A stretch of DNA of 64,000 bases from Alphaproteobacteria bacterium. Lineage in GTDB: Bacteria > Pseudomonadota > Alphaproteobacteria > SHVV01. The stretch spans positions 2,336,001 to 2,400,000 of the forward strand of contig OZ253470.1 in the NCBI GenBank assembly GCA_965261735.1. The letters are read 5' to 3'. Position 1 is the first letter of the stretch. Every line of letters begins with the position of its first letter. Shown one piece after another: positions 34,065 to 56,995 of the stretch. The position numbers and the translations under genes were made by a program. The notes below the pieces were generated by a model that was not told where the DNA came from, made no database searches, and saw only the letters and a program-made list of their open reading frames with translations.

Positions 34065-34628
34065 ATGGTCAGGCTCACCAAGATCTATACGCGCGGCGGG
34101 GATGCTGGTGAAACTTCGCTCGGCGGCGGTGCGCGCGTCGCCAAACACGATCTGCGCGTCGCCGCCTACGGCACGGTCGACGAGGCCAACGCCACGATCG
34201 GCCTCGCGCGCCTGCACGCGAGCGGCGAGGCCGACGCCATGCTGGGCCGCATTCAGGACGACCTGTTCGACCTCGGCGCCGACCTGTCGACGCCGGGCGA
34301 GGACTTCGTCGATCTGAATGCGCTGCGCATCACTCAGGTACAGATCGACCGGCTGGAGGCGGAGATCGATGCGATGAACGGGCGCCTCGCGCCGCTCGAT
34401 TCGTTCGTCCTGCCCGGAGGGACGGCGGCCGCCGCCCACCTTCACCTCGCCCGCACGGTGACGCGCCGGGCCGAGCGCCTGATGTGCGCGCTCGCCGCCC
34501 GCGAGGCGGTCAACCCGCTCGCCATCCGCTTCGTCAACCGGCTGTCCGATCACCTGTTCGTGCTCGGCCGCCACCTGAACGAGGACGGCGCCGGCGACGT
34601 GCTGTGGCGCCCCGGCGCCAACCGCTAG
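34065..34628 (+). CDS. pduO: PduO-type cob(I)alamin adenosyltransferase
   Basis: KIYTRGGDAGETSL, YGTVDEAN, LFDLGADL, FVLPGG, RRAER, NRLSD.LF. Confidence 0.95.
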   Translation: MVRLTKIYTRGGDAGETSLGGGARVAKHDLRVAAYGTVDEANATIGLARLHASGEADAMLGRIQDDLFDLGADLSTPGEDFVDLNALRITQVQIDRLEAEIDAMNGRLAPLDSFVLPGGTAAAAHLHLARTVTRRAERLMCALAAREAVNPLAIRFVNRLSDHLFVLGRHLNEDGAGDVLWRPGANR

Positions 34629-34689
34629 GACTTGGCGGTTTCGGCCTCTCGGGCGGGCGGCGGGTGAGACGGTATGTGAGGCGGCAATA

Positions 34690-35253
34690 ATGGCTTCCGG
34701 TCGCAAGAAAATGAAGATGGAGTCGACGGCGGAACCTACGGCAGGGGCCACCAAGGAGCGTTATGATGCGCAAAAGCGGCGAAAGGAGGTCGAGCGCAAG
34801 GCGCAACTGAGAAAAAGCAAACTCAAGCGGGCGGGATCGATGGCCGCTCGGCGGCTGCCGTACGCCGGGCTAGCGGTGCTGCTGGCAGTGGGTGCGGTCT
34901 GGTGGTTCGAGCGCGGACCGTCGCTCCCTCCGACGAGCATGGAGGGCCACGTGGAGGCGCTTCCGCCGGGTCACATTCTGACGGCTCCGATGGCCGAGAC
35001 CATCCAGCGTCACATGCTCGAACACGCCGATGGCAAGGGGGCTCCGGGCGTTATCATCCAGTACAACAGCGACGATTTCGACTGCGGACCCGACCTCGTA
35101 CGGAAGCTCACCGAACTCGCCCGCGACTATCGGGCAAACGTGTATCTCGCTCCCAGCAGCTACGACGGCAAGATCATTCTGACCAGGCTTGGTCGGCGGC
35201 AGGTCCTGGATGGTTTCGATGGCCCGGCGATCCGCCGGTTCATTGTCCGTTAG
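34690..35253 (+). CDS. Hypothetical membrane-anchored protein (possibly DUF3105-like)
   Basis: Basic N-terminus, one TM helix, HMLEH..G...GVIIQY motif; family call uncertain. Confidence 0.55.
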   Translation: MASGRKKMKMESTAEPTAGATKERYDAQKRRKEVERKAQLRKSKLKRAGSMAARRLPYAGLAVLLAVGAVWWFERGPSLPPTSMEGHVEALPPGHILTAPMAETIQRHMLEHADGKGAPGVIIQYNSDDFDCGPDLVRKLTELARDYRANVYLAPSSYDGKIILTRLGRRQVLDGFDGPAIRRFIVR

Positions 35254-35283
35254 GCGCGATAATGCGGGAGGCCCGGAGCGAAC

Positions 35284-35360
35284 GCGATGACGCGCCGCGC
35301 CGAGCGCTTGATCCGCGAACTCGTTGCTCGCGAAGCGGTGAGCCCGGCGGCAACCGCTAA
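35284..35360 (+). pseudogene. Displaced, internally deleted relic of the pduO 3' end
   Basis: AMTRRAERLIRELVAREAVSP is 49/63 nt identical to 34455-34517, fused to CCCGGCGGCAACCGCTAA (16/18 identical to 34611-34628). Confidence 0.88.
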
Positions 35361-35390
35361 GTGTTCGCCTCGAACCGTGCGGCCAATGGG

Positions 35391-35420
35391 GTAGGGGCGG
35401 GTTTTCAAACCCGCCCGTAC
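35391..35420. repeat. GTAG-class REP hairpin
   Basis: GTAGGGGCGGGTTTTCAAACCCGCCCGTAC: GTAG foot and GGGCGGGTTT/AAACCCGCCC stem between convergent genes. Confidence 0.7.
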
Positions 35421-35442
35421 GGCCCGCACAGCCGATGGCCCT

Positions 35443-37184
35443 TCAGACGACGAGGCCGGCGCGGCGTAGGCCCTCGAGGAAATGCTCGAGCAGGCCTGCG
35501 TCCCGGAACGGCGCGATCTCTGTTACCTTGAGCCATGAGATTTCCGAACTGAGCCGCCGCGTCTCCGCCGCCTCGGCGTACGCCTTCTCGAGGTCGCCGG
35601 TGTAGGCGTACGTCGCCGCGAGCAGGAGGTGGTTGCCGGTGGCGTCGGGGTTGCGCACGACGCCGCGCTTGAGGATCGAGATTGCCTCGTGGTAGCGCCG
35701 CAGCGTGAAGTAGGCCGACCCGAGGATCGAGAGGTACCAAGACGGATACACGGGATTGAGGCTCATCGCCTTGTCGATCAAGGGAAGGGTCTTTTCGGGC
35801 TCGCCGATCCAGGTGCGGATCTCGCCCAACGTCGCGTAGCTGTCAGCGGCGCTGGCATCGAGGCCAATCGCGCGCTCGGCCTCGGCGACGGCGTCGTCGT
35901 AGCGCTTCTTCCATAGATAGGCATAGCTCAACGTCTCGTGCGCCGCCGCCAACGAGCCGTCGAGCGCCACCGCCTGTTCCGCCAGCTCCAGGGAGCGGTC
36001 GCGCGCGGCTTCCGGTTCCGCGGACCAGCCCTGGTTGCATTCACGCATGTAGGTCAGCGACAGCCCGGCATAGGCGGGTGCGTAATCGAGGTCGAGGGCG
36101 CGCGCCTGCTCGAACATCCCGCCCGCCCGTTGGCCTCGCGCGTAAAGCGTGAGAGGTAGCCGCGTCCGCGCAGCAGGTAGTCGTAGGCGTCGATGTTGGC
36201 GGTATCCCGCCGCGCCAGCCGCGCCTGCTGGTGCGGGCTCAACGTCATCCGCAGCGCCGCGACGATCTCCCGCGTCACCTCGTCCTGGACCGCGAAGATG
36301 TCGACGAGGTCGCGGTCGTAGCGCTCGGCCCACACGTGCGCGCCGGTCGCCCCATCGACGAGCTGGGCGCTGATGCGCACGCGCCCGCCCGCCTTGCGCA
36401 CGCTACCCTCGAGGACGTGGCGGGCGCCGAGCTCGCGGCTCACCTGCTTGATGTCGGTCGGCTTGCCCTTGTAGGCAAAGGCCGAATGGCGCGCGATCAC
36501 GTTGAGCTGCGGGAGCTTCGACAGGGCCGTGATCAGGTCTTCGCTGATTCCGTCGCTGAAATATTCCTGCTCGGGATCGGCGCTCAGATTGTTGAACGGC
36601 AGGACCGCGATCGAGTCGCGCCGGTCGGCACTCCCCTCAGCAGCCCTCTCGCCGCCGCCGTCCGCCCTCAGCCGGTAGGCGCGAACCGGCTCGGCGATGT
36701 TCTTGAACGCCTGCTCGCCGAGCGAATCGTAGGCGAACTCGAGCTTGTTGTGAACGCTGTCGTAGACCGTGCCCGACAGGCACACGCCGCCGGGGTCGGC
36801 GAGCGCCCGCAGGCGAGCGGCGATGTTGACCCCGTCACCGAAGATGTCGTCGCCCTCGATGAGCACGTCGCCGAGGTGGACGCCAACGCGAAACTCGAGG
36901 CGCTCGGGCACCGCGCGCTCGCGGTTACGCTCGGCCAGCAGCGATTGCATCTCGGCCGCGCACGCCACCGCCTCAACGACGCTGGCGAACTCGGCGAGCA
37001 GCGCATCGCCGGCCGCATTGACGATGCGCCCGCCGTGGCTCGCGATGTTGCCCGACATCTCGCGGCGATCGGCGGTCAGGCGCGCGAGCGTCGCCTCTTC
37101 GTCCTCGCCCATCAAACGCGCATACCCGGCCACGTCGGCGGCAAGGATAGCGGCGAGCTTGCGTTGGACGCCGGGCGGTGACAC
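35443..37184 (-). pseudogene. Class III adenylate/guanylate cyclase with TolB-like and TPR domains, frameshifted near 36118-36128
   Basis: [47 protein letters not shown]; TPR repeats continue in another frame. Confidence 0.88.
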
Positions 37185-37287
37185 CGCGTCTGGCTCCCTG
37201 TGGGGTGGGCCGCGGCGTCTAGGGGAGGGCCAATGCAATGTCCAACCGCGCCCGGGCCGAGGCGCCCGGCACGCTCGGCGTCCCGCG

Positions 37288-37316
37288 TTGACAGGCTCAG
37301 GACGCCACACTAGTTT
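37288..37316 (+). promoter_or_regulatory. Sigma70-type promoter of etfBA
   Basis: TTGACA-N17-TAGTTT, 50 bp upstream of etfB. Confidence 0.6.
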
Positions 37317-37365
37317 GCCGCGCGAGCCGGCTTTCGCCCGCGCTCGCTTCGTCCAGGGGCCGACC

Positions 37366-38115
37366 ATGAAAGTGCTCGTCGCGATCAAGCGGGTCATCGA
37401 TGCGAACGTCAAGGTGCGGGTCAGGGCCGACCACACCGGCGTCGAAACGCAGAACGTCAAGATGGCCATGAACCCGTTCGACGAGATCGCCATCGAAGAG
37501 GCGATTCGCCTCAAGGAGGCGGGCAGCGTCGAGGAGATCGTCGCCGTATCGATGGGTGCGCAGACCTGCCAGGAGACCATACGCACGGCGCTCGCGATGG
37601 GCGCCGACCGCGGCATTCTGGTCAAGACGGACGCCGAGCTTCAGCCGCTCGCCGTGGCCAAGCTGCTCAAGGCCATCGTCGAGGCCGAGGCCCCCGACTT
37701 CGTCATCCTGGGCAAGCAGGCGATCGACGACGACGCCAATCAGACGGGCCAGATGCTCGCCGGGCTGCTCGGCTGGCCGCAGGGCACCTTCTGCTCCAAG
37801 CTCGTCTTCACGGACGGCCGCGCCGAGGCGACGCGCGAGGTCGATGGCGGCCTGCAGACCGTCTCGCTCGCGTTACCGACGATCATCACCACGGACCTGC
37901 GCCTCAACGAGCCGCGCTACGCCTCGCTGCCCAACATCATGAAGGCCAAGAAAAAGCCAATCGACCAGAAGACGCCAGAGGACTTCGGTGTCGACGTGAC
38001 GCCACGGCTCACGGTGCTCAAGGTCGAGCCGCCGCCCAAGCGCGAGGCCGGGGTCAAGCTCGAGAGCGTCGCCGACCTCGTCGACAAGCTGCGCAACGAG
38101 GCGGGGGTGATCTGA
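37366..38115 (+). CDS. etfB: Electron transfer flavoprotein beta subunit
   Basis: [45 protein letters not shown]. Confidence 0.97.
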
Positions 38116-39050
38116 TGGCGGTCCTGGTCCTCGCCGAGCACGACAACGCCGAGCTCAAGCCGGCGACGCTGAACACGGTGAGCGCGGCGGGCGAGCTCGA
38201 TGCGGAGGTGCACGTGCTGGTCGCCGGGCCGGGTGCGGCGCCGGTGGCCGATGCGGCGGCCAAGATCGCCGGTGTCGCCAAGGTCCTCCTCGCCGATGAC
38301 GCGCGCTACGACCATCAGCTCGCGGAGGCCGGGGCCGCCCTGATCGTCGCCCTGGCACCGGCCTACGCCGCGGTGCTGGCGCCGGCGACCACGACCGGCA
38401 AGAACATCATGCCGCGCGCCGCCGCACTGCTCGACGTGGCGCAGATCTCGGACATCAGCGAGGTCGTCTCGGGCGATACGTTCGTGCGGCCGATCTATGC
38501 CGGCAACGCGCTGGCGACGGTGCAGTCGAGCGATGCCATCAAGATCATCACCGTGCGCACCACCGCGTTCGCGGCTGCTCCGACCGAGGGCGGTAGCGCC
38601 GCCGTCGAGGCGGTAGCTGCGGCGGCCGATCCCGCGCTGTCGAGCTTCGTCGGCGAGGCGTTGAGCGCCTCGGAGCGGCCCGAGCTCACGGCCGCGCGCA
38701 TCATCATATCGGGGGGCCGCGGCATGCAGAGCGGCGACAACTTCCCGCTGCTCGAGAAGATCGCGGACCAGCTCGGGGCCGCCGTTGGCGCGAGCCGCGC
38801 CGCGGTCGATGCGGGCTTCGTGCCCAACGATTACCAGGTCGGCCAGACCGGCAAGATCGTGGCGCCCGAGCTCTACATCGCCGTCGGCATCTCGGGCGCC
38901 ATCCAGCACCTCGCGGGGATGAAGGACTCCAAGGTGATCGTCGCCATCAACAAGGACGAGGAGGCGCCCATCTTCCAGATCGCCGACTACGGGTTGGTGG
39001 CCGACCTCTTCAAGGTGCTGCCGGAGCTGGCCGAGGAGCTGGCGAAATAG
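38115..39050 (+). CDS. etfA: Electron transfer flavoprotein alpha subunit
   Basis: [42 protein letters not shown]. Confidence 0.97.
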
Positions 39051-39061
39051 CGGCGCTCGCG

Positions 39062-39934
39062 GTGATCGAGAAGGTCGCCGTCATCGGCGCCGGCCAGATG
39101 GGCTCGGGTATCGCCCACGTGTGCGCCCTCGCGGGCTTCGAGGTGACGCTGTCCGACATAGACCGCGCCCAGCTCGACAAGGCGCAGGGGACGATCGATG
39201 CCAACCTCGCGCGGCAGGTGGCGCGCGCGAGGATAACTGAAGAAAACAAGGCGGCGGCGCTCACCCGCATCGCGGCCGCGCAAGGCTTGGACGCGGTGGG
39301 GGACGCCGACCTCGCGATCGAGGCGGCGAGCGAGGACGAGGAGGTCAAGGTGCGCATCTTCGGCGAGCTGTGCCCGCGCCTCAAGCCGGGCGCCCTTATC
39401 GCCAGCAACACCTCGTCAATTTCGATCACGCGGTTGGCCGCGGCGAGCGACCGCCCGGCGCAATTCATCGGCGTCCACTTCTTCAATCCGGTGCCGATGA
39501 TGAGCCTCGTCGAGCTGATCCGCGGCATGGCCACCGAGCAGGCGACGTTCGATACGGTCGAGACCTTCGTGCGCGCACTCGGCAAGACGCCGGTCGCAGC
39601 CGAGGACGCGCCCGGCTTCATCGTCAACCGCATGCTCGTGCCCATGATCAACGAGGCGGTGGTCGCGCTCCACGAGGGGGTGAGCTCGGTGGCCGATATC
39701 GACGCGGCGATGAAGCTCGGCGCCAATCACCCAATGGGCCCGCTCGAGCTCGCCGATTTCGTCGGCCTCGACGTCTGCCTCGCGGTGATGCGGGTCCTGC
39801 ACGCCCAACTGGGCGATGCCAAGTACCGGCCGTGCCCGCTGCTCGTGAAGTTCGTCGACGCCGGCTGGCTCGGCCGCAAAACGGGCCGCGGCTTCTACGA
39901 CTATTCCGGCGAGACGCCGGTACCCAAGCGTTGA
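39062..39934 (+). CDS. hbd: 3-hydroxybutyryl-CoA dehydrogenase
   Basis: [32 protein letters not shown]. Confidence 0.95.
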
Positions 39935-40025
39935 GAGAACAGCGGCGGACTTAGCCGCGCATTCTTGGTTAGGCACCTGGCTTCAGCCATTTGTTGTCCG
40001 TTCGTAGCCAACGTGAACACCTACG

Positions 40026-40082
40026 CTAACATCGTCGCGCGATGAAGCGGCGCGTCAGGCGATGGCATCGGGGCTGTCCAAT
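40026..40082 (-). pseudogene. Displaced relic of the tlpA 3' end
   Basis: Reads LDSPDAI(A)[10 protein letters not shown] versus tlp[19 protein letters not shown]; 44/58 nt identical to 42420-42477 with a 1-nt gap. Confidence 0.85.
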
Positions 40083-40178
40083 AGTGGAATAAAAATGGGT
40101 TCTGTGACGTTTTTCCGCGAGGGACCCGCACGGCCCTGCGGTTTTCGCCACGTGTGTAACAGACGGGGAGTGAGAACC

Positions 40179-41063
40179 ATGAAGCGCAAACAAGCCGGTG
40201 ACTTCGATCAGGGGTTGCTCGATCTGTACGACCGCTTTATCCACGGCGCGGTGAGCCGCCGGGAGTTTCTCGACAGGGCCACGAAATATACCGTCGGCGG
40301 CATCACCGCTGCGGCGCTACTCGACGCGTTGTCGCCCAGATATGCGCTGGCGCAGCAGGTCGCGCCGAACGATCCCCGCATCAAGGCGGAGTACATCACC
40401 TACCCCTCACCGGACGGGCACGGTTCGGTGCGCGGGCTTCTTGCCCGGCCCGCGAATACCGGCGGAAAGGTGCCCGGCGTGGTCGTCGTGCACGAGAACC
40501 GCGGCCTCAACCCCTACGTGGAAGACGTCGCGCGCCGCGTCGCCGTGGCCGGGTTTGTGGGCCTGGCGCCGGACGGCCTGACCTCGTTCGGCGGCTATCC
40601 CGGCAATGACGACGACGGCCGCAAGATGCAGCGCCAGCTCGACGGCGGCAAGCTGCTGGAAGATTTCATCGCCACATTTCGACACCTTCACGGGCGCGAC
40701 GATACCGGCAAGGTGGGGGTGGTCGGCTTCTGCTACGGCGGCGGCGTGTGCAACGCGATGGCGGTGCGCCTCCCCGAGCTCGCGGCCGCGGCGCCGTTCT
40801 ACGGCGCCCAACCGGCAGCGGCGGACGTGCCCAAGATCCGGGCGCCGCTCTTGCTGCACTACGCAGCGCTCGACACCTACATCAACCCCGGCTGGCCGGC
40901 CTATGAAGCGGCGCTCAAGGAGCACGGCAAGGACTACACGGCGCACTTTTATGCGGACGTGAACCACGGCTTCCACAACGATACCACGCCGCGCTACGAC
41001 GAGGCCGCGGCCACGCTCGCGTGGGACCGCACGATCGCGTTCTTCGCCGACAAGCTGGTGTAG
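40179..41063 (+). CDS. Dienelactone hydrolase-family protein (YghX-like, twin-arginine leader)
   Basis: SRREFL, HENRGLN, GFCYGG, HGFHND. Confidence 0.92.
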
Positions 41064-41186
41064 GGGAGCGCCTTCGCCCCGTCTACGGGTTCGCTGTCTC
41101 CGTCGCTCCATAGACCACGAGAACGCACATGACAGTTTATCGTCCCTGCCCAATAGTCGGTGGCACGGGAAAGTAGCTCATTGTTC

Positions 41187-42291
41187 CTTGCCTATCCGGT
41201 TAACGCCCATGACCGCTACATGTAGGGTGCCGCCACTCTCCCGAGTAAAGCTCGGCATAGGTTGGAGCAGAGGTGTCGCCCGCGATGCCGAGCAATGAGC
41301 GGAAGGCGTTGAACGGGTAGAACCGCCTGTTGAAGCGGAAGGTGAACTCGTTGAGGTAGGCTTGTAGGTGCTGGTGGCTAACGCCGTGGTGGATACCGAT
41401 CAGCCACGTCTTCAGGTTGGCGAAAACCAGATGGATGATCGGCAGGTATTGCTCGGCAACCTCTGGATCACCACACTCGGCAACAGCGAAGTGCTCATAG
41501 CCGCGCTTACCGAGGCCAGCATAGCCGCTCCAATCGTCAGTAACGATCAGCGATCGCGGCGCGACGGTGCTCTCGACGAACCCACAGAGCGACTCGGCGC
41601 TACGGTCGAGCACGACGGCGAGCCGAACGCGTCCGGCATAGCGTCCGTCTTTCCGGTTGTCGAGCTTGGTGCCCGGCTTTCGATGACGCACTTCGATGGC
41701 ACAGGAGACGGGAACCTTGTGGTGAACACCACGGCCTTCCCCACGCGTTCGCCCGCCAACCCAGGTTTCGTCCACCTCAACATGGTTCTTGGGCTGTCCA
41801 CCGATCCTGTCTTGGTTGGGCCGCACCATGCCCGAGCGGAGCTTGTGGAGAATTTGAAAGGCCGTCTCGTAGCGCGAAAGACCAAGTTGCCGCTGAAACT
41901 GCACGGCGGACATGCCGGGCGTCTGACTGGCGACCAGATAAGCGGCCCAGAACCAGACGTTCAGCGGAGTGTGGCTACGCTCCATCACTGTTCCCACCGT
42001 CAGCCCGGTGTTCTGGCGGCACTTGCGGCAGCGCAGGACGCCAGGGCGGTTTTCAAAGTGGAACGGCTCTCCCGCCGTGCCGCAGTGCGGGCAGGCAAAG
42101 CCGTCTCCCCAGCGGGCTTTCTCCAGGTAGGCGGCGCAGGCCGCATCATCGGGGAAAAGTCGCTGGAACTCGGGTAGCGAATGCGGGAATGGGAGATCGG
42201 CGCGGTCGAGAACATCCATGGCGCGCTCCCCTATATCCGGGTTGCGCCCATTCTAGCCCTAGTGGGTGTGGGTGTAAACCGGACAGGTAAG
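41187..42291 (-). mobile_element. IS1595-family element, copy 2 (1105 bp, intact)
   Basis: IRs CTTGCCTATCCGGTT / AACCGGACAGGTAAG; 8-bp TSD CATTGTTC at 41179-41186 and 42292-42299. Confidence 0.96.
41200..42219 (-). CDS. IS1595-family transposase (Zn ribbon, HTH, DDE-like domain; His at the third catalytic position, probably ISSod11 group)
   Basis: CPHCG..CRKC, VEVDET, IVTDDWSGY, IHLVFANLK, YLNEFTFRFNRR. Confidence 0.93.
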   Translation of the reverse strand: MDVLDRADLPFPHSLPEFQRLFPDDAACAAYLEKARWGDGFACPHCGTAGEPFHFENRPGVLRCRKCRQNTGLTVGTVMERSHTPLNVWFWAAYLVASQTPGMSAVQFQRQLGLSRYETAFQILHKLRSGMVRPNQDRIGGQPKNHVEVDETWVGGRTRGEGRGVHHKVPVSCAIEVRHRKPGTKLDNRKDGRYAGRVRLAVVLDRSAESLCGFVESTVAPRSLIVTDDWSGYAGLGKRGYEHFAVAECGDPEVAEQYLPIIHLVFANLKTWLIGIHHGVSHQHLQAYLNEFTFRFNRRFYPFNAFRSLLGIAGDTSAPTYAELYSGEWRHPTCSGHGR

Positions 42292-42301
42292 CATTGTTCG
42301 T

Positions 42302-42400
42302 CCCCCTCCCCTACCCCCCTCCCACGAGGGGAGGGGGAATAAGGGCGCGACATCAACCTCTTAACCCTCCCCCTCGATGGGGGAGGGCCGGGAGGGGGTG
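42302..42400. repeat. Composite palindromic REP/RIME-like repeat, copy B
   Basis: CCCTCCCACGAGGGGAGGG ... CCCTCCCCCTCGATGGGGGAGGG; similar to 21449-21590. Confidence 0.8.
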
Positions 42401-42419
42401 AACCGACACAACAGCGAAC

Positions 42420-43022
42420 CTAGGTCCGGCGGGCGATGAAGTGGCGCATGAGAGCAACGGCCTCGGGGCTGTCCCATTCGGCCGGACCGACGAGACGGCC
42501 GAGCTCGCGGCCCTCGCGGTCGAGCAGCACCGAGGCCGGCAAGCCGAAGGCGCCGAAGGCGCGCGTCGCGTTCATGGGTTGGTCGACGTATGCGGCCAGC
42601 GAGCGGAGGTCGTGCTTGTCGAGGAAGGCCTTGACCGCCTCCAGCCCTTTGCGTTCCTGGGCGAGCGCGAGCACCAGGAAGTCGTCGCCGCCGAGCTTGG
42701 CGTTGAGCCGGTCGAGCGCCGGCATCTCGCGCAAACAGGGTGCGCACCAGGTCGCCCACAGATTGACCAGCACCACCTTGCCCTGGAAGTCGGCGAGCGT
42801 GCGCTCGGCGCCGCCTGCGTCGACGAAGGCCACCGCCGGCGCTGGCTTGAGGTTGTCGGACAAGGTAAAGTTGATCATCTGCCCCTTGATCAAGAGCTTG
42901 GCCGCGTCTCTGCTGGGCCCGACCTGCGGCACCACGGACTGGTCGATGCGCGTGGCCAGGAAGAGCACCGCGATCAGCCCAGCGGCGCCGACGAGAGCAT
43001 GTTTGAGGGGTGGGAGTTTCAT
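42420..43022 (-). CDS. tlpA: TlpA-family thiol:disulfide oxidoreductase
   Basis: [28 protein letters not shown]; divergent from argH. Confidence 0.93.
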
Positions 43023-43040
43023 GAAGTTCGAGACCGTGCC

Positions 43041-44569: not shown

Positions 44570-44580
44570 GGCCGCAGGGA

Positions 44581-48248: not shown

Positions 48249-48274
48249 GCGCTCTTCTTCTTCCGTGCGCGGCC

Positions 48275-48640: not shown

Positions 48641-48721
48641 CGGCCCTCCCCGGATTGCCCCGCCTATGTTAGCCGAAAAACGGCGTCCCCAGGTAGCGGG
48701 CCGGCGTTCTCGCGGCGGCGC

Positions 48722-49411
48722 TCAGCCCTCCTGCTCGCTGGCAAAGAACTCAACCTCCAGGCTGCGCGCGGCCTCGGGCGGATCGGGAACCTGGGTGTCG
48801 AAGGCTGTCATCTGGGTCGGCGCCAGCTCATTCTGGGCGGCGGAAAAGGTCCAGCTGAAGATCTCGCGCTTGCGCACGTCGAGGAGGCTACCGCGCAACA
48901 TCGGCACCGGTCGCGCCTCGCCCGAATTGTTGACGATCTCGCCGACGACGACCAACGTCGGACGATTGTTCTCGATCTGCTGCGTCGAGGTTACGTTGCG
49001 AATATCGAGCCCAACGCCGACCTGGCCCACGCTGAGGCCGACGACGCTGTAGAAGCCCGCCGCCGGGGGCCACTGGACGACGATCCAATCGCGGCCAAAC
49101 CAACCGCCACCGACGATAAGGACGATGACGGCAGCAAGCGCCGACCAGCCCACGATCTGGCCGATCGAGCCGCGCTGAGCCTCCGCCGCCCCGCGTCGAC
49201 CGCTGCGGCCGGTTTCCTGGAGAACCGACGCCCCGATGTCCCCGTCGACGTCTGGCACCGGCAGCGCTCCGACGCTAGCCGGAACATCGCCGGGCAGGCG
49301 CTCGGTCCAGGTGTGTCCGCATCTTACGCACCTGACGATGCGCCCATTGGGGGCGAGCAACTCAGGGTCGATGTTGTAACGGGTCTCGCAATTGGGGCAC
49401 GTCGTAATCAT
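48722..49411 (-). CDS. MJ0042 zinc-ribbon / DUF3426 protein
   Basis: CPNCETRY...VRCVRCGHTW, TM helix, WP, Ig-like tail; divergent from ftsE. Confidence 0.88.
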   Translation of the reverse strand: MITTCPNCETRYNIDPELLAPNGRIVRCVRCGHTWTERLPGDVPASVGALPVPDVDGDIGASVLQETGRSGRRGAAEAQRGSIGQIVGWSALAAVIVLIVGGGWFGRDWIVVQWPPAAGFYSVVGLSVGQVGVGLDIRNVTSTQQIENNRPTLVVVGEIVNNSGEARPVPMLRGSLLDVRKREIFSWTFSAAQNELAPTQMTAFDTQVPDPPEAARSLEVEFFASEQEG

Positions 49412-49572
49412 CGAGGACCCTGAGCTTTTTGCGGCCACACCTTATAAGCCGCTGGCCGAATCGAGGCAAGAGTAGCACGAGACGCGCGCACTGGACGCGG
49501 CGGTAGACGGTGTGCGATGCTTGAGGGTCGGTGACGGGACGCGGGCGGCGCCTGCACGAGGACGAGAGGCAC

Positions 49573-50274
49573 GTGGTTCGCTTTGAGAAGGTCGCCATGC
49601 GTTACGGCTGCGGGCCGAACGTGCTGAGCGATATCTCGTTTCATCTCGAGCCAGGTTCGTTCCATTTCCTGACCGGGCAGAGCGGCGCCGGGAAAACCTC
49701 GCTGCTGCGCCTGCTCTACCTCGCGCACCGTCCGTCACAGGGCTCCATCGTCATGTTCGGCCGCGACATGACGCGCCTCAAGCGCCGGGCGCTGCCCGCC
49801 TACCGCCGCCGCATCGGCGTCGTGTTCCAGGATTTTCGCCTGCTCGACCATCTGACGGCGCTCGACAACGTGGCCCTGCCGCTGCGCATCGCGGGCGCGC
49901 GCCGGGCCGACGTCGAGGTCCACGTCGCCGAGCTCCTCGCTTGGGTCGGCCTCGGCGACAAGATTCACGCCACGCCGCCGACCATGTCGGACGGCGAGAA
50001 GCAGCGCGCCGCGATCGCGCGCGCCGTCATCGCCCGGCCGAGCCTGCTACTGGCCGACGAGCCGACGGGTAACGTCGACCCCGAGCGCGGCCTTAAGGTG
50101 CTCCACCTCTTCGGGGAGCTCAACAAGATCGGCACCACCATCGTCATCGCGACGCACGATCGCCATCTGGTGACGCGTTTCGACCACCCCGAGCTGCGGC
50201 TCGTCGACGGCGAGCTCGAAACGATTCGGCCCGCCGCGCCCCCGGTGCTCCGGCCCCTGCGCGGGAGGGCCTGA
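49573..50274 (+). CDS. ftsE: Cell division ATP-binding protein FtsE
   Basis: GQSGAGKTS, IGVVFQDFRLL, LLADEPTGN, IATHD; signature reads MSDGEKQR. Confidence 0.93.
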   Translation: MVRFEKVAMRYGCGPNVLSDISFHLEPGSFHFLTGQSGAGKTSLLRLLYLAHRPSQGSIVMFGRDMTRLKRRALPAYRRRIGVVFQDFRLLDHLTALDNVALPLRIAGARRADVEVHVAELLAWVGLGDKIHATPPTMSDGEKQRAAIARAVIARPSLLLADEPTGNVDPERGLKVLHLFGELNKIGTTIVIATHDRHLVTRFDHPELRLVDGELETIRPAAPPVLRPLRGRA

Positions 50275-50277
50275 GCC

Positions 50278-51159
50278 GTGGCACGGCGCGCGGAGGCCCC
50301 CTTTCGACCGGCCGCCTCGGGCCGGTTGCTGCCGCTCATTATCGCCGTCATGGTGTTCCTGGCGACGATGGCGCTGATCGCGGCGCTGGCGCTCAACAAT
50401 GCCGTCGGGCGCTGGGACGACAACCTGTCCGGTGGCCTGACGGTTAGAATCGCCACCGGCAACGCCAGCGTTGCCGCGACCGCCGCCGAGGTCCAGTCGG
50501 CGCTGGCCGAGCTGCGGCAGACGCCTGGCGTCGCCACGGCACGCGCGCTGTCCGAGGGCGAACTCGCGGCGCTACTGGAGCCCTGGCTCGGTAAGGGCAA
50601 CCTGGGGCCGGATCTACCCGTACCGCACCTCCTCGACGTCACCCTCGAGCCCGGCGCCGATGTCGATCTCGCCGCACTCACGCAGCGCCTGACGGCGGTG
50701 GCGCCAAGCGCCGTGCTCGACGATCATCGCACTTGGCTCGATCAGCTGGTGCGCCTCGCACGCTGGGCCCAGATCGTCGCCGTGGCCGCGATCGTCGTGC
50801 TCGGGCTCTCCGCCATCGTCGTCGTCGCGTTCGCGATTCAGGCCGACCTCGCCTCCCAAACCCATGCCGCCGAGGTCCTGCACCTGATCGGCGCACGCGA
50901 TTCCTATATCGCGCGCCAGTTCCAGGGCCACGCGCTGGCGCTGGGCTTGCGCGGCGGCGTGCTCGGCATGGCCCTGGCGCTGGCCACCTTTTTGGCCCTC
51001 GCGCGCTTTGCCGCCGGGTTCGATGCGCCTCTGCTGCCGCGCCTCGACTTGGGCCCATTCGATTGGGCCGCCGTTGCGGCGGTACCGTTGGCGGCGGCGC
51101 TCATCGCCACGACGACGGCGCACCTTACCGTGATGCGAGCGCTACGCCGCTTGCCCTAG
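50278..51159 (+). CDS. ftsX: Cell division permease FtsX
   Basis: IAVMVFLA, LLEPWLG, LPVP, DDHRTW, LHLIGARD.YIA.QF. Confidence 0.92.
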   Translation: MARRAEAPFRPAASGRLLPLIIAVMVFLATMALIAALALNNAVGRWDDNLSGGLTVRIATGNASVAATAAEVQSALAELRQTPGVATARALSEGELAALLEPWLGKGNLGPDLPVPHLLDVTLEPGADVDLAALTQRLTAVAPSAVLDDHRTWLDQLVRLARWAQIVAVAAIVVLGLSAIVVVAFAIQADLASQTHAAEVLHLIGARDSYIARQFQGHALALGLRGGVLGMALALATFLALARFAAGFDAPLLPRLDLGPFDWAAVAAVPLAAALIATTTAHLTVMRALRRLP

Positions 51160-51162
51160 CCC

Positions 51163-51714
51163 ATGCTGGTTCTGCTCGACCGAGACGGCGTGCTCAATCG
51201 TGATCGGCCCGACTACGTGAAGACGCCCGACGAACTCGTCATGATCGAGGGTTCCGCCGCCGCCGTCGCTCGCCTCAATCGCGCGGGTCACCGGGTCGCG
51301 GCGGTCACCAACCAGTCAGCCGTCGGCCGCGGGCTCATCGATGCCGCGATGCTCGGGCGAATTCACGATCGTTTGCGCTCTCACCTCGCGGCGGCGGGCG
51401 CCCACCTCGACGCCCTCATCGAGTGCACCGACCCCCCCTGGGCGCCGAGCGAGCGTCGCAAGCCCGAACCCGGCATGCTGTGCGAGGCATTGGCCCGCTT
51501 CGGCGCCGCCGCGGCGGAGACGCCGATGATCGGCGACTCGCTGCGCGACCTGGAAGCCGCCGCCGCCGCCGGCTGCCGGCGCTATCTCGTGCGCACCGGC
51601 AACGGCCGCAAGACGGAAGGGCGCGTGCCCCGCGATCTGGAGCCAGTGCGCGTTTTCGACGATCTCGGCGACACCGTCGATCACCTGCTGAGCCCGGACA
51701 CATGGCGCAGCTGA
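51163..51714 (+). CDS. gmhB: D-glycero-manno-heptose-1,7-bisphosphate phosphatase (HAD)
   Basis: LDRDGVLN, VTNQS, RKPEPGM, IGDSLRD, LVRTG.G. Confidence 0.85.
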   Translation: MLVLLDRDGVLNRDRPDYVKTPDELVMIEGSAAAVARLNRAGHRVAAVTNQSAVGRGLIDAAMLGRIHDRLRSHLAAAGAHLDALIECTDPPWAPSERRKPEPGMLCEALARFGAAAAETPMIGDSLRDLEAAAAAGCRRYLVRTGNGRKTEGRVPRDLEPVRVFDDLGDTVDHLLSPDTWRS

Positions 51715-52346
51715 CCTTCCGTGCGCGAAAGCGGCGCTTGTTGCCGCTGGTCCATGGCCTGCTCGCCATCGCCATAGCCGGGCTCGCACTTTGGTTCGGG
51801 GGGCTCGTCTGGTTCGTCGACGGCATCAGAAGCGAGACCGGAGACGCCACGAGCGCCGCCGACGCCATTGTCGTCCTCACGGGCGGAAGCGGGCGGATCG
51901 ACGCCGGGCTCGCCTTGCTCGGCGCCGGCCGCGCTCAAATGCTCTTCATCTCGGGCGTCGATCGGGGTACGTCGAGGGCCGAGATACGTCGCCGCGCCGA
52001 GCGCTACCCCGAGGCCTTCGAGTGCTGCGTCGTGCTTGGGCGCGAGGCCACCAACACCGCCGGCAACGCCGAGGAAACCGGGCACTGGATGGTCGAGCGG
52101 GACTTTACGAGCTTGTTCGTGGTGACCACGGATTTTCATCTGCCGCGGAGCTTGATCGAATTCCGCCGCGTCATGCCCAATGTCCGCCTCATCGCGGTTC
52201 CCGTTTCCGCCCGCAACATCAAGATCGACTCCTGGTGGCAGTGGCCCGGAACGGCCTGGTTGATCTCACAGGAGTTGGGCAAATACCTGGTCAGTGTGGC
52301 CCGCCTGTATTTGTCGCGCGGTATGCACGCGCTGGCGCTGGCCTAG
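51702..52346 (+). CDS. YdcF/ElyC (DUF218) family protein
   Basis: DAIVVLTGG..RI, LFISGV, NT.GNA.ET, VT..FHLPRS. Confidence 0.9.
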   Translation: MAQLTFRARKRRLLPLVHGLLAIAIAGLALWFGGLVWFVDGIRSETGDATSAADAIVVLTGGSGRIDAGLALLGAGRAQMLFISGVDRGTSRAEIRRRAERYPEAFECCVVLGREATNTAGNAEETGHWMVERDFTSLFVVTTDFHLPRSLIEFRRVMPNVRLIAVPVSARNIKIDSWWQWPGTAWLISQELGKYLVSVARLYLSRGMHALALA

Positions 52347-52350
52347 TCGG

Positions 52351-52366
52351 AAACATAACGAGAACA
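52351..52366 (+). promoter_or_regulatory. Putative alphaproteobacterial LexA box upstream of nrdJ
   Basis: AAACATAACGAGAACA; one mismatch to GAAC-N7-GAAC. Confidence 0.5.
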
Positions 52367-52469
52367 TTGAAACACGCCGCCGGCCTAGGGTAAGATGCCA
52401 TGGGGCCAGTGCGCCGCCGCGCGTTGCGCTGGATCTCGGGTCAGGGTTCGACACCGCATGGAGTTCAGC

Positions 52470-54800
52470 GTGCCCAAACCGGCGCCGATCTCGCAACAGA
52501 TCTGGGACATGAAGTACCGGCTCAAGGGAGCCGACGCATCGCCCGTAGACAAAACCATCGCCGATACATGGCACCGCGTGGCCCGGGCGCTCGCAGCCGT
52601 CGAGGCCGAGCCCGAGCTGTGGGAGGCCCGGTTCCTCGAAGCCATGGAGGATTTCCGCTTCCTGCCCGCGGGGCGCATCCTCGCCGGCGCCGGCGCCGGG
52701 CGGCGCGTCACCCTGTTCAACTGCTTCGTCATGGGCAGCATTGAAGACGACATGACGAGCATCTTCGAGAACCTCAAGGAAGCCGCGCTCACGATGCAGC
52801 AGGGCGGCGGCATCGGCTACGACTTCTCGACGCTGAGGCCGCGCGGCGCGCCTGTCGCTGGCGTCGGCGCGGACGCCTCGGGGCCCCTGAGCTTCATGGA
52901 CGTGTGGGATGCGATGTGCCGCACCATCATGTCGGCCGGCTACCGCCGCGGCGCGATGATGGCGACGCTGCGCTGCGATCACCCCGACATCGAGGCCTTC
53001 ATCGAAGCCAAGCACGATCCCGGCCGGCTGCGCATGTTCAACCTGTCGGTGCTGGCGAGCGACGCGTTCATGAGCGCGGTCAAGGAGGACCAGCCCTGGG
53101 AGTTGACCTTCGGCGGCGTCACCTACAAGAGCCTACCCGCGCGCGAGCTGTGGGATCGCATCATGCGAGCGACCTACGCCTACGCCGAGCCCGGCGTGAT
53201 CTTCATCGACCGTATCAACCGCCGCAACAACCTCGCCTACGTCGAGACGATCAGCGCCACGAATCCCTGCGGTGAACAGCCGCTGCCGCCCTATGGCGCG
53301 TGTCTGCTGGGCTCGATCAATCTCGCGCGCCTGGTGGACAACCCCTTCACGCCCCAAGCCGCGCTCGATGTGGCCGCGCTCGAGCGCCTGGTGCCGGTCG
53401 CCGTACGCATGCTCGACAACGCGATCGACGTCTCCAACTTTCCGCTCGCGGCGCAGGAGCACGAGGCGAAGAACAAGCGGCGCATTGGCCTCGGTGTCAC
53501 CGGGCTCGCGGACGCACTGATCCTGTGTGGAGCCCGCTACGGCTCGCGGGAAAGCATCGCGCTCGTTGAGTCTTGGATGGGCACGTTGCGCCGCGCCGCC
53601 TATCTGGCCTCCGCCGAGCTCGCCGCCGAGAAGGGTGCCTTCGCGCTGTTCGATCGCGACGCCTACCTCGCGGGCGAAAGCGTACTGGAGCTCGATGCGG
53701 ACGTGCGCGCCGCCATCGCCGCCAAGGGCATCCGCAACGCGCTGCTCACGTCCGTTGCGCCGACCGGCACCATCTCGATGTTCGCCGACAACGTCTCGTC
53801 CGGGCTCGAGCCTGTCTTCGCCTTCAGCTACAAGCGCCGTGTGCTGATGCCCGACGGTGCCCGCCGCGAGGAGGACGTTACCGACTATGCCTACCGCCTG
53901 TTCCAGCGCGTCAAGGGGGAGCAGGCGGTGCTGCCGGACGCGTTCGTCGACGCGCAGGCGCTGGCGCCGGTCGACCACGCCGCGATGCAGGCGGCGGTGC
54001 AGCGCTACGTCGATTCGGCCGTCTCCAAGACCATCAACTGCCCGGTCGACATCGCGTTCGAGGCGTTCAAGGACATCTACCTGCTGGCCTACGATTCAGG
54101 CTGCAAGGGCTGCACGACCTATCGCCCCAACGAGATCACGGGCGCCGTGCTCGAGGCCGGAGCGGGACCCGCAACCCCGCCCGAAGTGGCGGCCCAGTCG
54201 GAGTTGCCGCTCCAGGCGCCGCCGACCAAGCCCCACGACGTGTACGAGGCCGGAGGCGTGGTCTACATGACGCAGCCGCTCGACCGTCCCGGCGTGCTGC
54301 CCGGCAGCACCTACAAGGTGCGCTGGCCCGACAGCGACCACGCCATGTACATCACCATCAATGACGTCGTCACCGACGGGCGGCGCCGCCCCTTCGAGGT
54401 GTTCATCAACTCCAAGAACATGGAGCACTATGCCTGGACGGTGGCGCTGACGCGCATGATGAGCGCCGTGTTCCGGCGCGGCGGCGACATCTCCTTCGTG
54501 GTCGACGAGCTCAAGGCGGTGTTCGACCCGCGCGGCGGGCAGTGGGTCGAGGGCCATTACGTCCCCTCGCTGCTCGCGGCCATCGGCGAGGTGATCGAAC
54601 GCCACCTGATCACGATCGGCTTCATCGCGCCGCCCGAGGCCGAGATGCGCGACCGCGCCGAACTGCTCAAGGCCGCCGGCGCCGAGGATTTGGGCGCCGA
54701 CGTCCGCTTCCGCATCTGCCCCAAATGCAGCCAACCCGGCCTCATCCGCCTCGAGAACTGCGACACCTGCACGAGCTGCGGCTACTCGAAGTGTAGCTGA
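52470..54800 (+). CDS. nrdJ: Class II (AdoCbl-dependent) ribonucleotide reductase with TSCPD/Zn-finger tail (start GTG 52470 or ATG 52458)
   Basis: FLPAGRI, LFNCFV, GGGIG, ATNPCGEQPL, CLLGSINL, APTGTIS, SKTIN, CPKC..CTSCGYSKC. Confidence 0.96.
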   Translation: MPKPAPISQQIWDMKYRLKGADASPVDKTIADTWHRVARALAAVEAEPELWEARFLEAMEDFRFLPAGRILAGAGAGRRVTLFNCFVMGSIEDDMTSIFENLKEAALTMQQGGGIGYDFSTLRPRGAPVAGVGADASGPLSFMDVWDAMCRTIMSAGYRRGAMMATLRCDHPDIEAFIEAKHDPGRLRMFNLSVLASDAFMSAVKEDQPWELTFGGVTYKSLPARELWDRIMRATYAYAEPGVIFIDRINRRNNLAYVETISATNPCGEQPLPPYGACLLGSINLARLVDNPFTPQAALDVAALERLVPVAVRMLDNAIDVSNFPLAAQEHEAKNKRRIGLGVTGLADALILCGARYGSRESIALVESWMGTLRRAAYLASAELAAEKGAFALFDRDAYLAGESVLELDADVRAAIAAKGIRNALLTSVAPTGTISMFADNVSSGLEPVFAFSYKRRVLMPDGARREEDVTDYAYRLFQRVKGEQAVLPDAFVDAQALAPVDHAAMQAAVQRYVDSAVSKTINCPVDIAFEAFKDIYLLAYDSGCKGCTTYRPNEITGAVLEAGAGPATPPEVAAQSELPLQAPPTKPHDVYEAGGVVYMTQPLDRPGVLPGSTYKVRWPDSDHAMYITINDVVTDGRRRPFEVFINSKNMEHYAWTVALTRMMSAVFRRGGDISFVVDELKAVFDPRGGQWVEGHYVPSLLAAIGEVIERHLITIGFIAPPEAEMRDRAELLKAAGAEDLGADVRFRICPKCSQPGLIRLENCDTCTSCGYSKCS

Positions 54801-54802
54801 GG
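54778..54802 (+). repeat. 25-bp direct repeat, copy 1 (nrdJ 3' end)
   Basis: GCGGCTACTCGAAGTGTAGCTGAGG, identical to 56971-56995. Confidence 0.95.
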
Positions 54803-55796
54803 CGCCTTAGGTATGGACTCATGAAACGATGGACATACTGAAGCGGCCAAGCCATGAGAATTCTCGTCACGAGAAGTGCCGGCCATCTCGGTGAGGCCGT
54901 CATGCGCACCCTTGCACGGACCGACCGAGACGCCCTCGGCATCGACATCCTGGCGTCGCAATTCACCCAAGCGGTTGGCTCGATCGTCGACCGTAGCTTC
55001 GTGGAGCGCTGCATGGCGGGCGTCGACGCGGTCATTCACACGGCGACGCTGCACAAACCGCATGTCGCGACGCATAGTCGCCAGGACTTTGTCGACACCA
55101 ACATCACCGGCACCCTCAATTTGCTGGAAGAAGCAAGCCTGGCCGGCGTTGAAAGCTTTGTCTTCACCAGCACGACCAGTGCCTTTGGCGCCGCGCTGGT
55201 GTCGGCGGACGGCGCCCCCGCCGCCTGGATCACGGAGGACGTGACGGCAATACCCAAGAATATCTACGGCGTCACCAAGACCGCGGCCGAGGATCTATGC
55301 CATTTGTTCCAGCGCCAAAAGGGGCTCCCCTGTGTCGTGTTGCGCACCTCGCGGTTCTTTCCCGAAGAGGATGACAGCAAGGCCCGGCGCGCGGCGTACC
55401 AAGACGATAATGCCAAAGCCAACGAATTCCTGTTTCGCCGGGTCGACCTGGAGGACGCCGTGAGCGCCCACCTCAATGCGATGGAGCGTGCACCGGCGAT
55501 CGGCTTTGGCCGCTATATCATCAGCGCAACGACGCCGTTCTGGCCGGAAGACCTCGCCGAATTGCGCGAAGATGCCGCCGCAGTCGTGCACCAGCAGGTG
55601 CCGGCCTGCGAAGCCGAATATCAGCGCCGCGGCTGGCGCCTGTTCCCCAGCATCGACCGGGTTTATGTGAACCGGAGGGCCAGGGGCGACCTCGGTTGGC
55701 GCCCCAAATACGATTTCGGCCATATCGTTGGTCAATTGAGAGCCGGCGAGGAGCCTGGCAGCGACCTCGCCCGTACTGTGGGCGCGAAGGGTTATC

Positions 55797-56902
55797 CTTG
55801 CCTATCCGGTTAACGCCCATGACCGCTACATGTAGGGTGCCGCCACTCTCCCGAGTAAAGCTCGGCATAGGTTGGAGCAGAGGTGTCGCCCGCGATGCCG
55901 AGCAATGAGCGGAAGGCGTTGAACGGGTAGAACCGCCTGTTGAAGCGGAAGGTGAACTCGTTGAGGTAGGCTTGTAGGTGCTGGTGGCTAACGCCGTGGT
56001 GAGATACCGATCAGCCACGTCTTCAGGTTGGCGAAAACCAGATGGATGATCGGCAGGTATTGCTCGGCAACCTCTGGATCACCACACTCGGCAACAGCGA
56101 AGTGCTCATAGCCGCGCTTACCGAGGCCAGCATAGCCGCTCCAATCGTCAGTAACGATCAGCGATCGCGGCGCGACGGTGCTCTCGACGAACCCACAGAG
56201 CGACTCGGCGCTACGGTCGAGCACGACGGCGAGCCGAACGCGTCCGGCATAGCGTCCGTCTTTCCGGTTGTCGAGCTTGGTGCCCGGCTTTCGATGACGC
56301 ACCTCGATGGCACAGGAGACGGGAACCTTGTGGTGAACACCACGGCCTTCCCCACGCGTTCGCCCGCCAACCCAGGTTTCGTCCACCTCAACATGGTTCT
56401 TGGGCTGTCCACCGATCCTGTCTTGGTTGGGCCGCACCATGCCCGAGCGGAGCTTGTGGAGAATTTGAAAGGCCGTCTCGTAGCGCGAAAGACCAAGTTG
56501 CCGCTGAAACTGCACGGCGGACATGCCGGGCGTCTGACTGGCGACCAGATAAGCGGCCCAGAACCAGACGTTCAGCGGAGTGTGGCTACGCTCCATCACT
56601 GTTCCCACCGTCAGCCCGGTGTTCTGGCGGCACTTGCGGCAGCGCAGGACGCCAGGGCGGTTTTCAAAGTGGAACGGCTCTCCCGCCGTGCCGCAGTGCG
56701 GGCAGGCAAAGCCGTCTCCCCAGCGGGCTTTCTCCAGGTAGGCGGCGCAGGCCGCATCATCGGGGAAAAGTCGCTGGAACTCGGGTAGCGAATGCGGGAA
56801 TGGGAGATCGGCGCGGTCGAGAACATCCATGGCGCGCTCCCCTATATCCGGTTTGCGCCCATTCTAGCCCTAGTGAGTGTGGGTGTCAACCGGATAGGCA
56901 AG
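55797..56902 (-). mobile_element. IS1595-family element, copy 3 (1106 bp, transposase frameshifted by a 1-nt insertion near 56002)
   Basis: IRs CTTGCCTATCCGGTT at both ends; 8-bp TSD GGGTTATC at 55789-55796 and 56903-56910. Confidence 0.96.
56861..56889 (-). promoter_or_regulatory. Sigma70 promoter inside the IS1595 left end
   Basis: TTGACA-N17-TAGAAT on the minus strand, pointing at the transposase ATG. Confidence 0.7.
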
Positions 56903-56970
56903 GGGTTATCATGCTGAGGTCTTCGCCGAGGGACCCTATCCCGTCGAGTGAGTTCGACAAACGCCTGGTA

Positions 56971-56995
56971 GCGGCTACTCGAAGTGTAGCTGAGG
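56971..56995 (+). repeat. 25-bp direct repeat, copy 2 (displaced nrdJ 3' end)
   Basis: Identical to 54778-54802; encodes GYSKCS*. Confidence 0.95.

Follow-up and report, generated by a model that had tools for sequence, protein, structure and literature searches.

One-gene insertions directly behind the stop codons of pduO, tlpA and nrdJ in an alphaproteobacterium, each followed by a second copy of the gene end

Foreign DNA at the 3′ end of a gene is known from several systems, and integrative and conjugative elements (ICEs), for instance, integrate in fda. In Escherichia coli, e14 (and phage 21) is found in icd: the intact gene runs into the insert, a displaced C-terminal pseudogene, icdC, lies at the far end, and the two tails are reported to differ by a few, mostly conservative changes (PMC13626634). 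Cis-mobilizable elements (CIMEs) at gene 3′ ends have been defined as a class of their own (PMC5704250). Gene ends can also be duplicated by host recombination: in the E. coli experiments with one-sided homology that a further report presents, 56 of 60 clones were single-crossover integrations of circles that duplicated the homologous end of 109-950 bp, and true homology-facilitated illegitimate recombination (HFIR) usually gave an insertion plus a deletion and used 3-10 bp of microhomology (PMC3240628). In arrays of Rhs, contact-dependent inhibition (CDI) and type VI secretion system (T6SS) effectors, a new 3′ end and its cargo come to lie behind the gene body and the old end is displaced, for which an integrase-free, HFIR-like route has been proposed (PMC5361080). 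Gene gain between core genes by double crossover, without mobile-element genes, is well argued in one report, in which half of bacterial horizontal-transfer hotspots lack such genes and the entry route is deduced mainly from statistics (PMC5635113). The subject here is a 64-kb stretch of DNA (the window, 67% G+C), placed in the Alphaproteobacteria by its core genes, in which one layout occurs three times within 23 kb: an intact core gene (pduO, tlpA or nrdJ), one accessory gene, and then the 3′ end of the core gene once more, in direct orientation and with the stop codon included. We tentatively read these as three separate one-gene insertions directly behind core-gene stops, made by host recombination anchored by homology.

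The three loci resemble each of these systems in part. Direct repeats made of the 3′ end of the target gene, as in the flanking attachment sites attL and attR of an integrated element, are present at all three. e14 is 15 kb long and has its own integrase and excision functions, whereas the inserts here are 0.65-1.2 kb, with one metabolic gene and no recombinase. CIMEs are decayed ICEs or integrative and mobilizable elements (IMEs) at the one site of the cognate element, whereas three target genes are involved here and Pfam searches and reading of the inserts found no remnants of transfer or integration genes in them. The products of single crossover and HFIR share with the present loci the one-sided homology and the order of gene, foreign DNA and partial duplicate, but the single-crossover constructs, as that report describes them, had hundreds of base pairs of identity (PMC3240628), while the repeats here are 25-174 nt long and natural donors were not found in the loci examined. 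In Rhs, CDI and T6SS loci, a polymorphic toxin gene receives a functionally different tail and an immunity gene, whereas here housekeeping genes keep their tail and the cargo is unrelated: the genes encode PduO, TlpA and NrdJ, the cargo a DUF3105-like protein, a YghX-family hydrolase and an epimerase, and no toxin with its immunity gene is among them. A double crossover leaves no duplicated tail, so the relics here imply that one side was not a clean homologous exchange. What is unusual is the combination of housekeeping genes that keep their tail, single unrelated cargo, no recombinase and three events in 23 kb; a literature search of limited extent on integrase-less islets flanked by gene-end repeats gave nothing on point. 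Such scars are physical records of single insertions, with exact joints, a unit size (one gene) and a rough clock in the decay of the relic, and if the pattern holds genome-wide and in conspecifics, an integrase-free route of gene gain becomes testable. The parts of the three loci are as follows (GC3 is G+C content at third codon positions; ORF, open reading frame; IS, insertion sequence; REP, repetitive extragenic palindrome).

34065-34628, + strand: pduO-type cob(I)alamin adenosyltransferase gene, intact, 187 aa (Pfam Cob_adeno_trans 6.4e-61; TIGR00636 179.7 bits; GC3 0.90)
34455-34628, + strand: upstream repeat copy, the last 174 nt of pduO
34629-35283, + strand: insert 1, 655 nt (61-nt leader, ORF 34690-35253, 30-nt trailer)
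34690-35253, + strand: 187-aa ORF, membrane-anchored, distant DUF3105 relative (GC3 0.75; atlas score 0.92 to DUF3105 clusters)
35284-35360, + strand: pduO tail relic (tblastn E 3e-4)
40026-40082, - strand: tlpA tail relic, last 18 codons and stop, 43/57 nt, 1-nt deletion
40083-42419: insert 2, 1222 nt without IS (96-nt upstream region, YghX gene, spacer, IS1595 copy, REP-like palindromes)
40179-41063, + strand: YghX-family hydrolase gene, convergent with tlpA (NF041440 482.8 bits, cut-off 460; Pfam DLH)
42420-43022, - strand: tlpA thiol:disulfide oxidoreductase gene, intact, 200 aa, with WCAPC motif and start (NF047696 5.4e-48); its last 57 nt, on the - strand, are the upstream repeat copy
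52395-54800, + strand: nrdJ B12-dependent ribonucleotide reductase gene, intact, 801 aa (TIGR02504 581.6 bits)
54778-54802, + strand: upstream repeat copy at the nrdJ end (last 7 codons, stop and 2 nt)
54803-56970, + strand: insert 3, 1052 nt without IS (51-nt leader, epimerase gene, 22-nt trailer)
54854-56948, + strand: NAD-dependent epimerase/dehydratase-family gene, split by IS1595 (Pfam Epimerase 4.6e-24; GC3 0.76)
56971-56995, + strand: nrdJ tail relic including the stop, 25/25 nt

In all three cases the repeat ends at the stop codon (plus 0-2 nt; 2 nt at nrdJ). Past that end, identity in two 15-nt blocks is 5/15 and 3/15 for pduO, 6/15 and 5/15 for tlpA, and 4/15 and 5/15 for nrdJ; random sequence gives 4.2/15 on average. 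On the 5′ side the repeat reaches back by a different length at each site: 174 nt at pduO (decayed to 77), 57 at tlpA and 25 at nrdJ. In the pduO relic, 35284-35346 matches pduO 34455-34517 at 49/63 nt (peptide AMTRRAERLIRELVAREAVSP against TVTRRAERLMCALAAREAVNP), and 35343-35360 matches the last five codons and stop at 16/18 nt; the 97 nt between two CCCG microhomologies have been deleted, and a hairpin follows at 35391-35420. The tlpA relic has its stop at the same position as tlpA itself and is 92 nt away from the hbd stop, the place taken by the tlpA stop in relatives; a terminator-like site on the - strand (39958-39942) is found downstream. The nrdJ stop and the epimerase start are 53 nt apart. 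Flanks of the cargo are short: 61 nt before and 30 nt after the ORF in insert 1, 51 and 22 nt in insert 3, and in insert 2 96 nt upstream of yghX and about 240 nt behind it, REP-like repeats included. An initial annotation of this DNA had described the threefold layout of gene, cargo and tail copy, and the layout was confirmed, the three scars being independent of one another. Its figures for the nrdJ and pduO matches were reproduced, and the measured lengths of 655, 1222 and 1052 nt, which exclude IS and target duplication, bear out its 0.7-1.2 kb. The tlpA repeat is there, with a match of 43/57 nt in place of the 44/58 given for it, and the relics are "last codons" at tlpA and nrdJ but not at pduO, where the relic consists of codons ~130-150 and the last six positions. 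Just 5′ of the pduO relic and in the same frame, 35263-35283 reads CGRPGAN and resembles the PduO C-terminus WRPGANR (5/5 residues), with only about 11/18 nt shared and the differences within its five codons all synonymous; this could be another small relic, either older or foreign, or a chance likeness.

High-GC DNA yields many weak repeats, which speaks for chance similarity, an explanation taken here together with an assembly chimera, but the scores are well above those of matched controls. When the 120-nt tail of each of 59 gene ends was locally aligned with its own downstream 5 kb, a check that the initial annotation had suggested, tlpA and nrdJ both scored 50 (null maxima 32 and 35), and 0/22 control blocks reached the score of either. 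With 180-nt tails, pduO scored 63. Across 1263 gene ends from the window and 80 related loci, called by a simple GC3-based caller, four reached 48: pduO, nrdJ (50), tandem short-chain dehydrogenase paralogues in the window (49) and one related locus, L056 (75). Controls at this threshold gave 0/1263 on the opposite strand and 2/1146 upstream; tlpA is outside the 1263-end set, where a longer spurious ORF displaced it in the gene calls, and its score comes from the 59-end, 120-nt scan. True relics number 3 in ~60 window genes and 0 in the relatives' loci. The nrdJ 25-mer found 0 matches in 100 shuffles; apart from it, and leaving IS elements aside, there is no exact direct repeat of more than 17 nt with its copies within 6 kb. 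When all window proteins were compared with the window at the protein level, the pduO relic alone stood out (E 3e-4). The relics also keep frame, stop position and peptide similarity; the contig spans near-identical 1.1-kb IS copies with their own target duplications; and YghX and TlpA recur at 99% in other database entries. Chance or a chimera is, on these grounds, barely credible. Several other candidates were rejected. The L056 score reflects two paralogous ABC permease genes 4 kb apart, and the score of 49 is accounted for by three tandem short-chain dehydrogenase paralogues at 14383-16606 (44-47% identical). Older second relics further downstream scored at best 35, 30 and 30, inside the null range, and the stretch scoring 35 (37247-37287) is gapped GC-rich DNA without peptide similarity. 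A match of the tlpA tail to 21553-21577 is a REP-like element.

Comparison with relatives shows what the region looks like without the inserts. The related loci were drawn from genome contigs with LysA, together with 10 kb of flank, and among the matches listed (80 genomes) the closest LysA is at most 61% identical. The 34-55 kb part of the window is a conserved block: pduO, etfB, etfA, hbd, tlpA (opposite strand), argH, lysA, DUF4175, an ABC/FtsX pair, a HAD hydrolase, a DUF218 protein and nrdJ. Four loci (L003, L005, L033 and L036) keep the order pduO-etfB-etfA-hbd-argH-lysA-DUF4175 in the stretch covered, and in all of these except L033 the conserved order continues with ABC-FtsX-HAD-nrdJ; in L006, L030 and others the 3′ ends of hbd and tlpA face each other, at a distance of 115 nt in L030. 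No homologue of the three cargo genes, or of a tetratricopeptide repeat (TPR) gene at 35443-36333, was found in the 80 loci (tblastn, E <= 1e-3). The core order pduO-etfBA-hbd-(tlpA)-argH-lysA-DUF4175...ABC-FtsX-HAD-nrdJ thus exists in relatives without the three cargo genes, which supports insertion, and the search for cargo-free sites that the initial annotation had proposed was answered to this extent, by distant relatives. Given that the cargo is absent from these loci and has a lower GC3 (0.75-0.83) than the core (0.90), it appears to be foreign. The same comparison bears on a tandem duplication of each core gene with later decay or replacement of the second copy. The direct orientation of the copies fits such a history, as does the fact that PduO and the product of the ORF behind it are both 187 aa long. 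That ORF, however, encodes a DUF3105-like membrane protein with no PduO similarity, the cargo at tlpA is encoded on the other strand, and the tails alone are duplicated, with sharp 5′ ends. Full-length tandem paralogues, which the initial annotation had named as evidence against its own reading, were absent from the loci compared for pduO (18), tlpA (71) and nrdJ (4), and we consider this explanation very improbable.

In the route that we tentatively prefer, the incoming DNA would carry a copy of the core gene's end together with the cargo. Recombination of this copy with the chromosomal gene end would put the cargo in and leave two direct copies: the upstream copy would complete the working gene, and the downstream copy would be dead and decaying. 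This could take two forms. First, a small circularised fragment (gene end plus cargo) might integrate by a single crossover. Second, a break in the gene end might be repaired through homology on its left side and by end joining on its right. DNA of a related strain would presumably be the donor, and the recurrence of the REP-like element of insert 2 at 21553-21577 (24/25 matches) would fit a donor from within the lineage. That the repeat ends at the stop in 3/3 cases points to a Campbell-type insertion through a gene-end copy on the incoming DNA, a geometry that host recombination and site-specific integration would both produce; if similarity was confined to the coding tail, a drop in identity after the stop is what would be expected. 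A host-recombination route has its laboratory precedent in the one-sided-homology experiments (PMC3240628); it does without a recombinase and would work equally at three unrelated targets.

The relics might be foreign tails or decaying duplicates, and the two predict different substitutions. The age and codon arguments draw on 46 aligned codons in total, in which 10 of the 24 differing codons are synonymous and 14 non-synonymous. Differences at codon positions 1, 2 and 3 number 6, 8 and 15, and the changes from functional copy to relic are 15 GC>AT, 6 AT>GC and 8 other. By our estimate, about 40% of differing codons should be synonymous for a once-identical pair with one copy drifting and about 80% for two constrained orthologues. 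One relic (tlpA) is frameshifted and one (pduO) has lost 97 nt, and together with the codon counts this is about what a decaying, once-identical duplicate gives. The functional PduO segment is closer than the relic to all 18 of 18 orthologues (11-15 against 9-13 of 20 residues), and the body of PduO is as similar to those orthologues as its tail is (0.72 and 0.73 for L003, for example). The nearest relatives of TlpA read EWDSPEA(I/F/L)ALIR(Y/H)FI: where the two copies differ as E/D and H/R, the functional tail has the relatives' residue, with D and R in the relic; at M/T, the relatives' I is found in neither copy; and both copies share the lineage-specific ending FIARR. Every polarisable TlpA difference is therefore a change in the relic. 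From these comparisons the relics look like derived, decaying copies, with no sign of imported working tails. The initial annotation had taken many of the differences as synonymous or conservative, had concluded that both tails probably once coded for protein and had spoken of a tail swap; neither the coding tails nor the swap is supported by the codon counts, the frameshift and deletion, and the comparisons with orthologues, while its inserts, scars and later IS stand.

Relic age also appears to track the spread of the cargo. YghX is identical at 292/294 positions to P0121, a cluster of 8 sequences (next matches 78%), and TlpA is 99% identical to P0001, a cluster of 7 (next match 66%). The relic beside this YghX, whose cluster of 8 is at 99%, has 75% identity, whereas the epimerase has its best database matches at 89-91% and none that reaches 92%, and the relic beside it shows 100% identity. 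The oldest-looking relics would thus go with fixed cargo and the perfect relic with strain-specific cargo.

The same pattern can be set against a target duplication at insertion, in which a staggered break or a replication template switch copies 25-174 nt and viability keeps the events that span the stop. A perfectly identical youngest repeat is what such a process would leave, the older pairs fit once-identical copies with one decaying (10 against 14 codons, 15 GC>AT against 6 AT>GC, and the deletions), and a donor with matching gene order is not required. The right end of the repeat, though, should then fall anywhere in a spacer of ~100 nt, and it lies at the stop (+0-2 nt) every time, for which the chance is ~3% per case as a rough estimate; this argues against a plain target-site duplication. 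There is also no intergenic direct repeat of the scar type around any other accessory gene in the window. We regard this explanation as decidedly improbable.

Several observations weigh against homology-anchored insertion from a related donor. The mosaic test on PduO gave no body/tail signal among the 18 orthologues. The donor arrangement, with cargo beside the core gene, was seen in 0/80 loci and in 0/2 replicon contexts of epimerase homologues, a weak test with relatives that are all distant. The nrdJ repeat of 25 nt is at or below the length for RecA-dependent crossover, so this case needs the break-repair variant. Each insert holds one complete gene with far-side flanks of 22-96 nt, and random fragment ends would not give this three times. 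Finally, a general host mechanism should leave scars elsewhere, yet none is seen at the gene ends of relatives. The initial annotation had proposed a general route of gene gain, and the lack of any relic at the gene ends of the 80 related loci (1263 ends tested, including the window's) speaks against that generality. The absence elsewhere needs an extra assumption, for example that this genome, rich in IS and pseudogenes, purges junk slowly.

Site-specific integration would account for some of these points. Here the inserts would be mini or decayed elements whose attachment site mimics the gene end, the two copies would be attL and attR, and the integrase would act in trans or have been lost. 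Such integration classically leaves this order of gene, insert and displaced 3′ end, with a repeat that stops where the gene does; the inserts are bounded as tightly as cassettes, the tails used as targets are conserved in sequence, and the occurrence of scars in this genome only, among the loci scanned, fits a lineage-specific enzyme. The nrdJ repeat is in addition short and perfect (25/25) and holds an imperfect dyad at 54778-54802, with arms GCGGCTAC and GTAGCTGA (6/8 complementary, 7-nt spacer). The dyad has the shape of a recombinase core site, yet one is expected by chance at roughly 10% by our estimate. On the other side, Pfam found no recombinase domain in any insert or in the window (24 + 37 ORFs), phage-integrase and resolvase domains included, in agreement with the initial annotation that the inserts carry no integrase. 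Stop-to-stop ORFs at 56903-57900 were judged by eye, with Pfam applied there to a DksA/TraR-like ORF only. The mobility genes of the window are DDE transposases alone (IS1595, IS3-type rve and Mutator). Three unrelated targets in 23 kb would need three specificities, and inserts of 0.65-1.2 kb with a single metabolic gene and no mobility remnants do not resemble the integrative elements or CIMEs that are known. The inserts are bounded neither by terminal inverted repeats nor by an attC-like fold, and for the hypothetical circle junction of nrdJ the fold is no better than that of shuffled sequence (z -0.25 and 0.06). No common motif was seen at the three targets by reading the sequences. An Rfam scan found no family at 33000-60000 and a tRNA scan found none in the window, so the sites are not attachment sites of RNA genes. 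Site-specific integration is somewhat unlikely in our judgement; should trans-acting site-specific recombination prove true, the inserts would represent a class of one-gene mini-elements.

A related but less probable idea is a lineage-specific capture of cassettes, in which the last codons of conserved genes serve as attachment sites. Circles of one promoterless gene and a host gene tail would be inserted behind the stop, with the newest next to the gene and read through from it. Catalysis would fall to a recombinase from elsewhere in the genome, or to host recombination working on short DNA that arrives by transformation or in a gene transfer agent. If true, this would be an integron-like system of gene gain without an integron. 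Integron cassettes are single genes with short flanks, apparently promoterless, and lie beside a fixed point with the newest closest. The inserts are like them in the single gene and short flanks, but differ in having no attC-like palindrome, no intI or attI and no GTTRRRY core: there is no integron integrase in the window, and the junctions lack the core. Between the core stop and the cargo genes that run in the same direction there is no terminator-like site and no convincing promoter-like site, so expression of this cargo by read-through from the core gene is likely.

The DUF3105-like ORF has 117 clusters among 1.84 billion representatives, the best at 52% identity, and of 7 relatives scanned, 6 share with the ORF a weak match to DUF3105; a plasmid collection held no match to insert 1. 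Homologues of the epimerase on two alphaproteobacterial replicons (plasmid/chromid) adjoin a regulator and a GFA-family gene, not nrdJ, and the plasmid collection gave epimerase matches of 67-69%, in other contexts only. The closest homologues (P0241-P0244 and P0248, 84-91%) are on contigs of 1094-1737 nt, one cluster having 31 members, and the contigs with the 89-91% matches range from 1.1 to 6 kb, mostly 1.1-1.7 kb; the short ones could be a unit that assemblers cannot place, or simply short contigs. At 54854-54890 the epimerase reads MRILVTRSAGHLGE, where the full-length homologues P0241, P0245 and P0247 read LVTGS(A/V)GHLGE: the first glycine of the nucleotide-binding motif has become arginine. 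With this change and the IS1595 insertion, the newest cargo gene looks already dead, and capture need not be adaptive.

The two IS1595 copies within the inserts and the IS3-type element beyond them are as follows.

41185-42291, - strand: IS1595-family copy 1, 1107 nt, intact transposase 41200-42219, target duplication CATTGTTC (Pfam DDE_Tnp_IS1595, Zn_ribbon_IS1595)
55795-56902, - strand: IS1595-family copy 2, 1108 nt, frameshifted transposase, target duplication GGGTTATC, inside the epimerase gene
58812-59093 (orfA) and 57880-58815 (orfB): IS3-type element downstream of the nrdJ relic, in an IS-rich "junkyard" region

Copies 1 and 2 are 99.4% identical over 1108 nt, and their ends are inverted copies (24 nt at 92%). 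Both have target duplications of 8 bp, a length typical of the IS1595 family. Read across the IS ends, the epimerase frame runs to VGAKGYHAEVFAEGPYPVE and a stop, the same C-terminus as in homologues. Given that each copy has its own 8-bp target duplication and lies inside an insert, both arrived later than the inserts, as the initial annotation had held. The plasmid collection contains 76% matches to IS1595 on sphingomonad plasmids. Copy 1 directly adjoins the REP-like, G/C-rich palindromes at 42300-42419, which lie between it and the tlpA stop; targeting of REPs by IS has reportedly been described. A third IS1595 copy (1-402) is cut by the window start and is 100% identical to copy 1 over 402 nt, and a 61-nt IS1595 end fragment lies at 59198-59258. 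Beside the third copy, an Amidohydro_2 gene at 409-1045 appears as two overlapping ORFs (409-693 and 659-1045) and is probably a frameshifted pseudogene. A Mutator/IS256-type transposase gene is found at 2346-3575, and a 121-nt stretch at 3604-3724 recurs inverted (98%) at 57697-57817, beside the IS3-type element.

Accretion may extend beyond the third insert. In the related locus L015 a DUF2125 gene directly follows nrdJ, and in the window DUF2125 is at 60486. The 5.7 kb between (54803-60485) contains the epimerase gene, the relic, the DksA/TraR-like ORF (57130-57516), IS pieces and an EamA transporter gene, and the whole of it may have been accreted with the newest insert adjoining nrdJ. Between the pduO relic and etfB, 35443-37360 holds the TPR protein gene and an adenylate/guanylate cyclase-domain gene on the - strand. 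These are absent from the pduO-etfB position in the 18 related loci, where nothing, a rhomboid gene or other genes are found instead, and the pduO-etfB and hbd-tlpA junctions are variable in many lineages.

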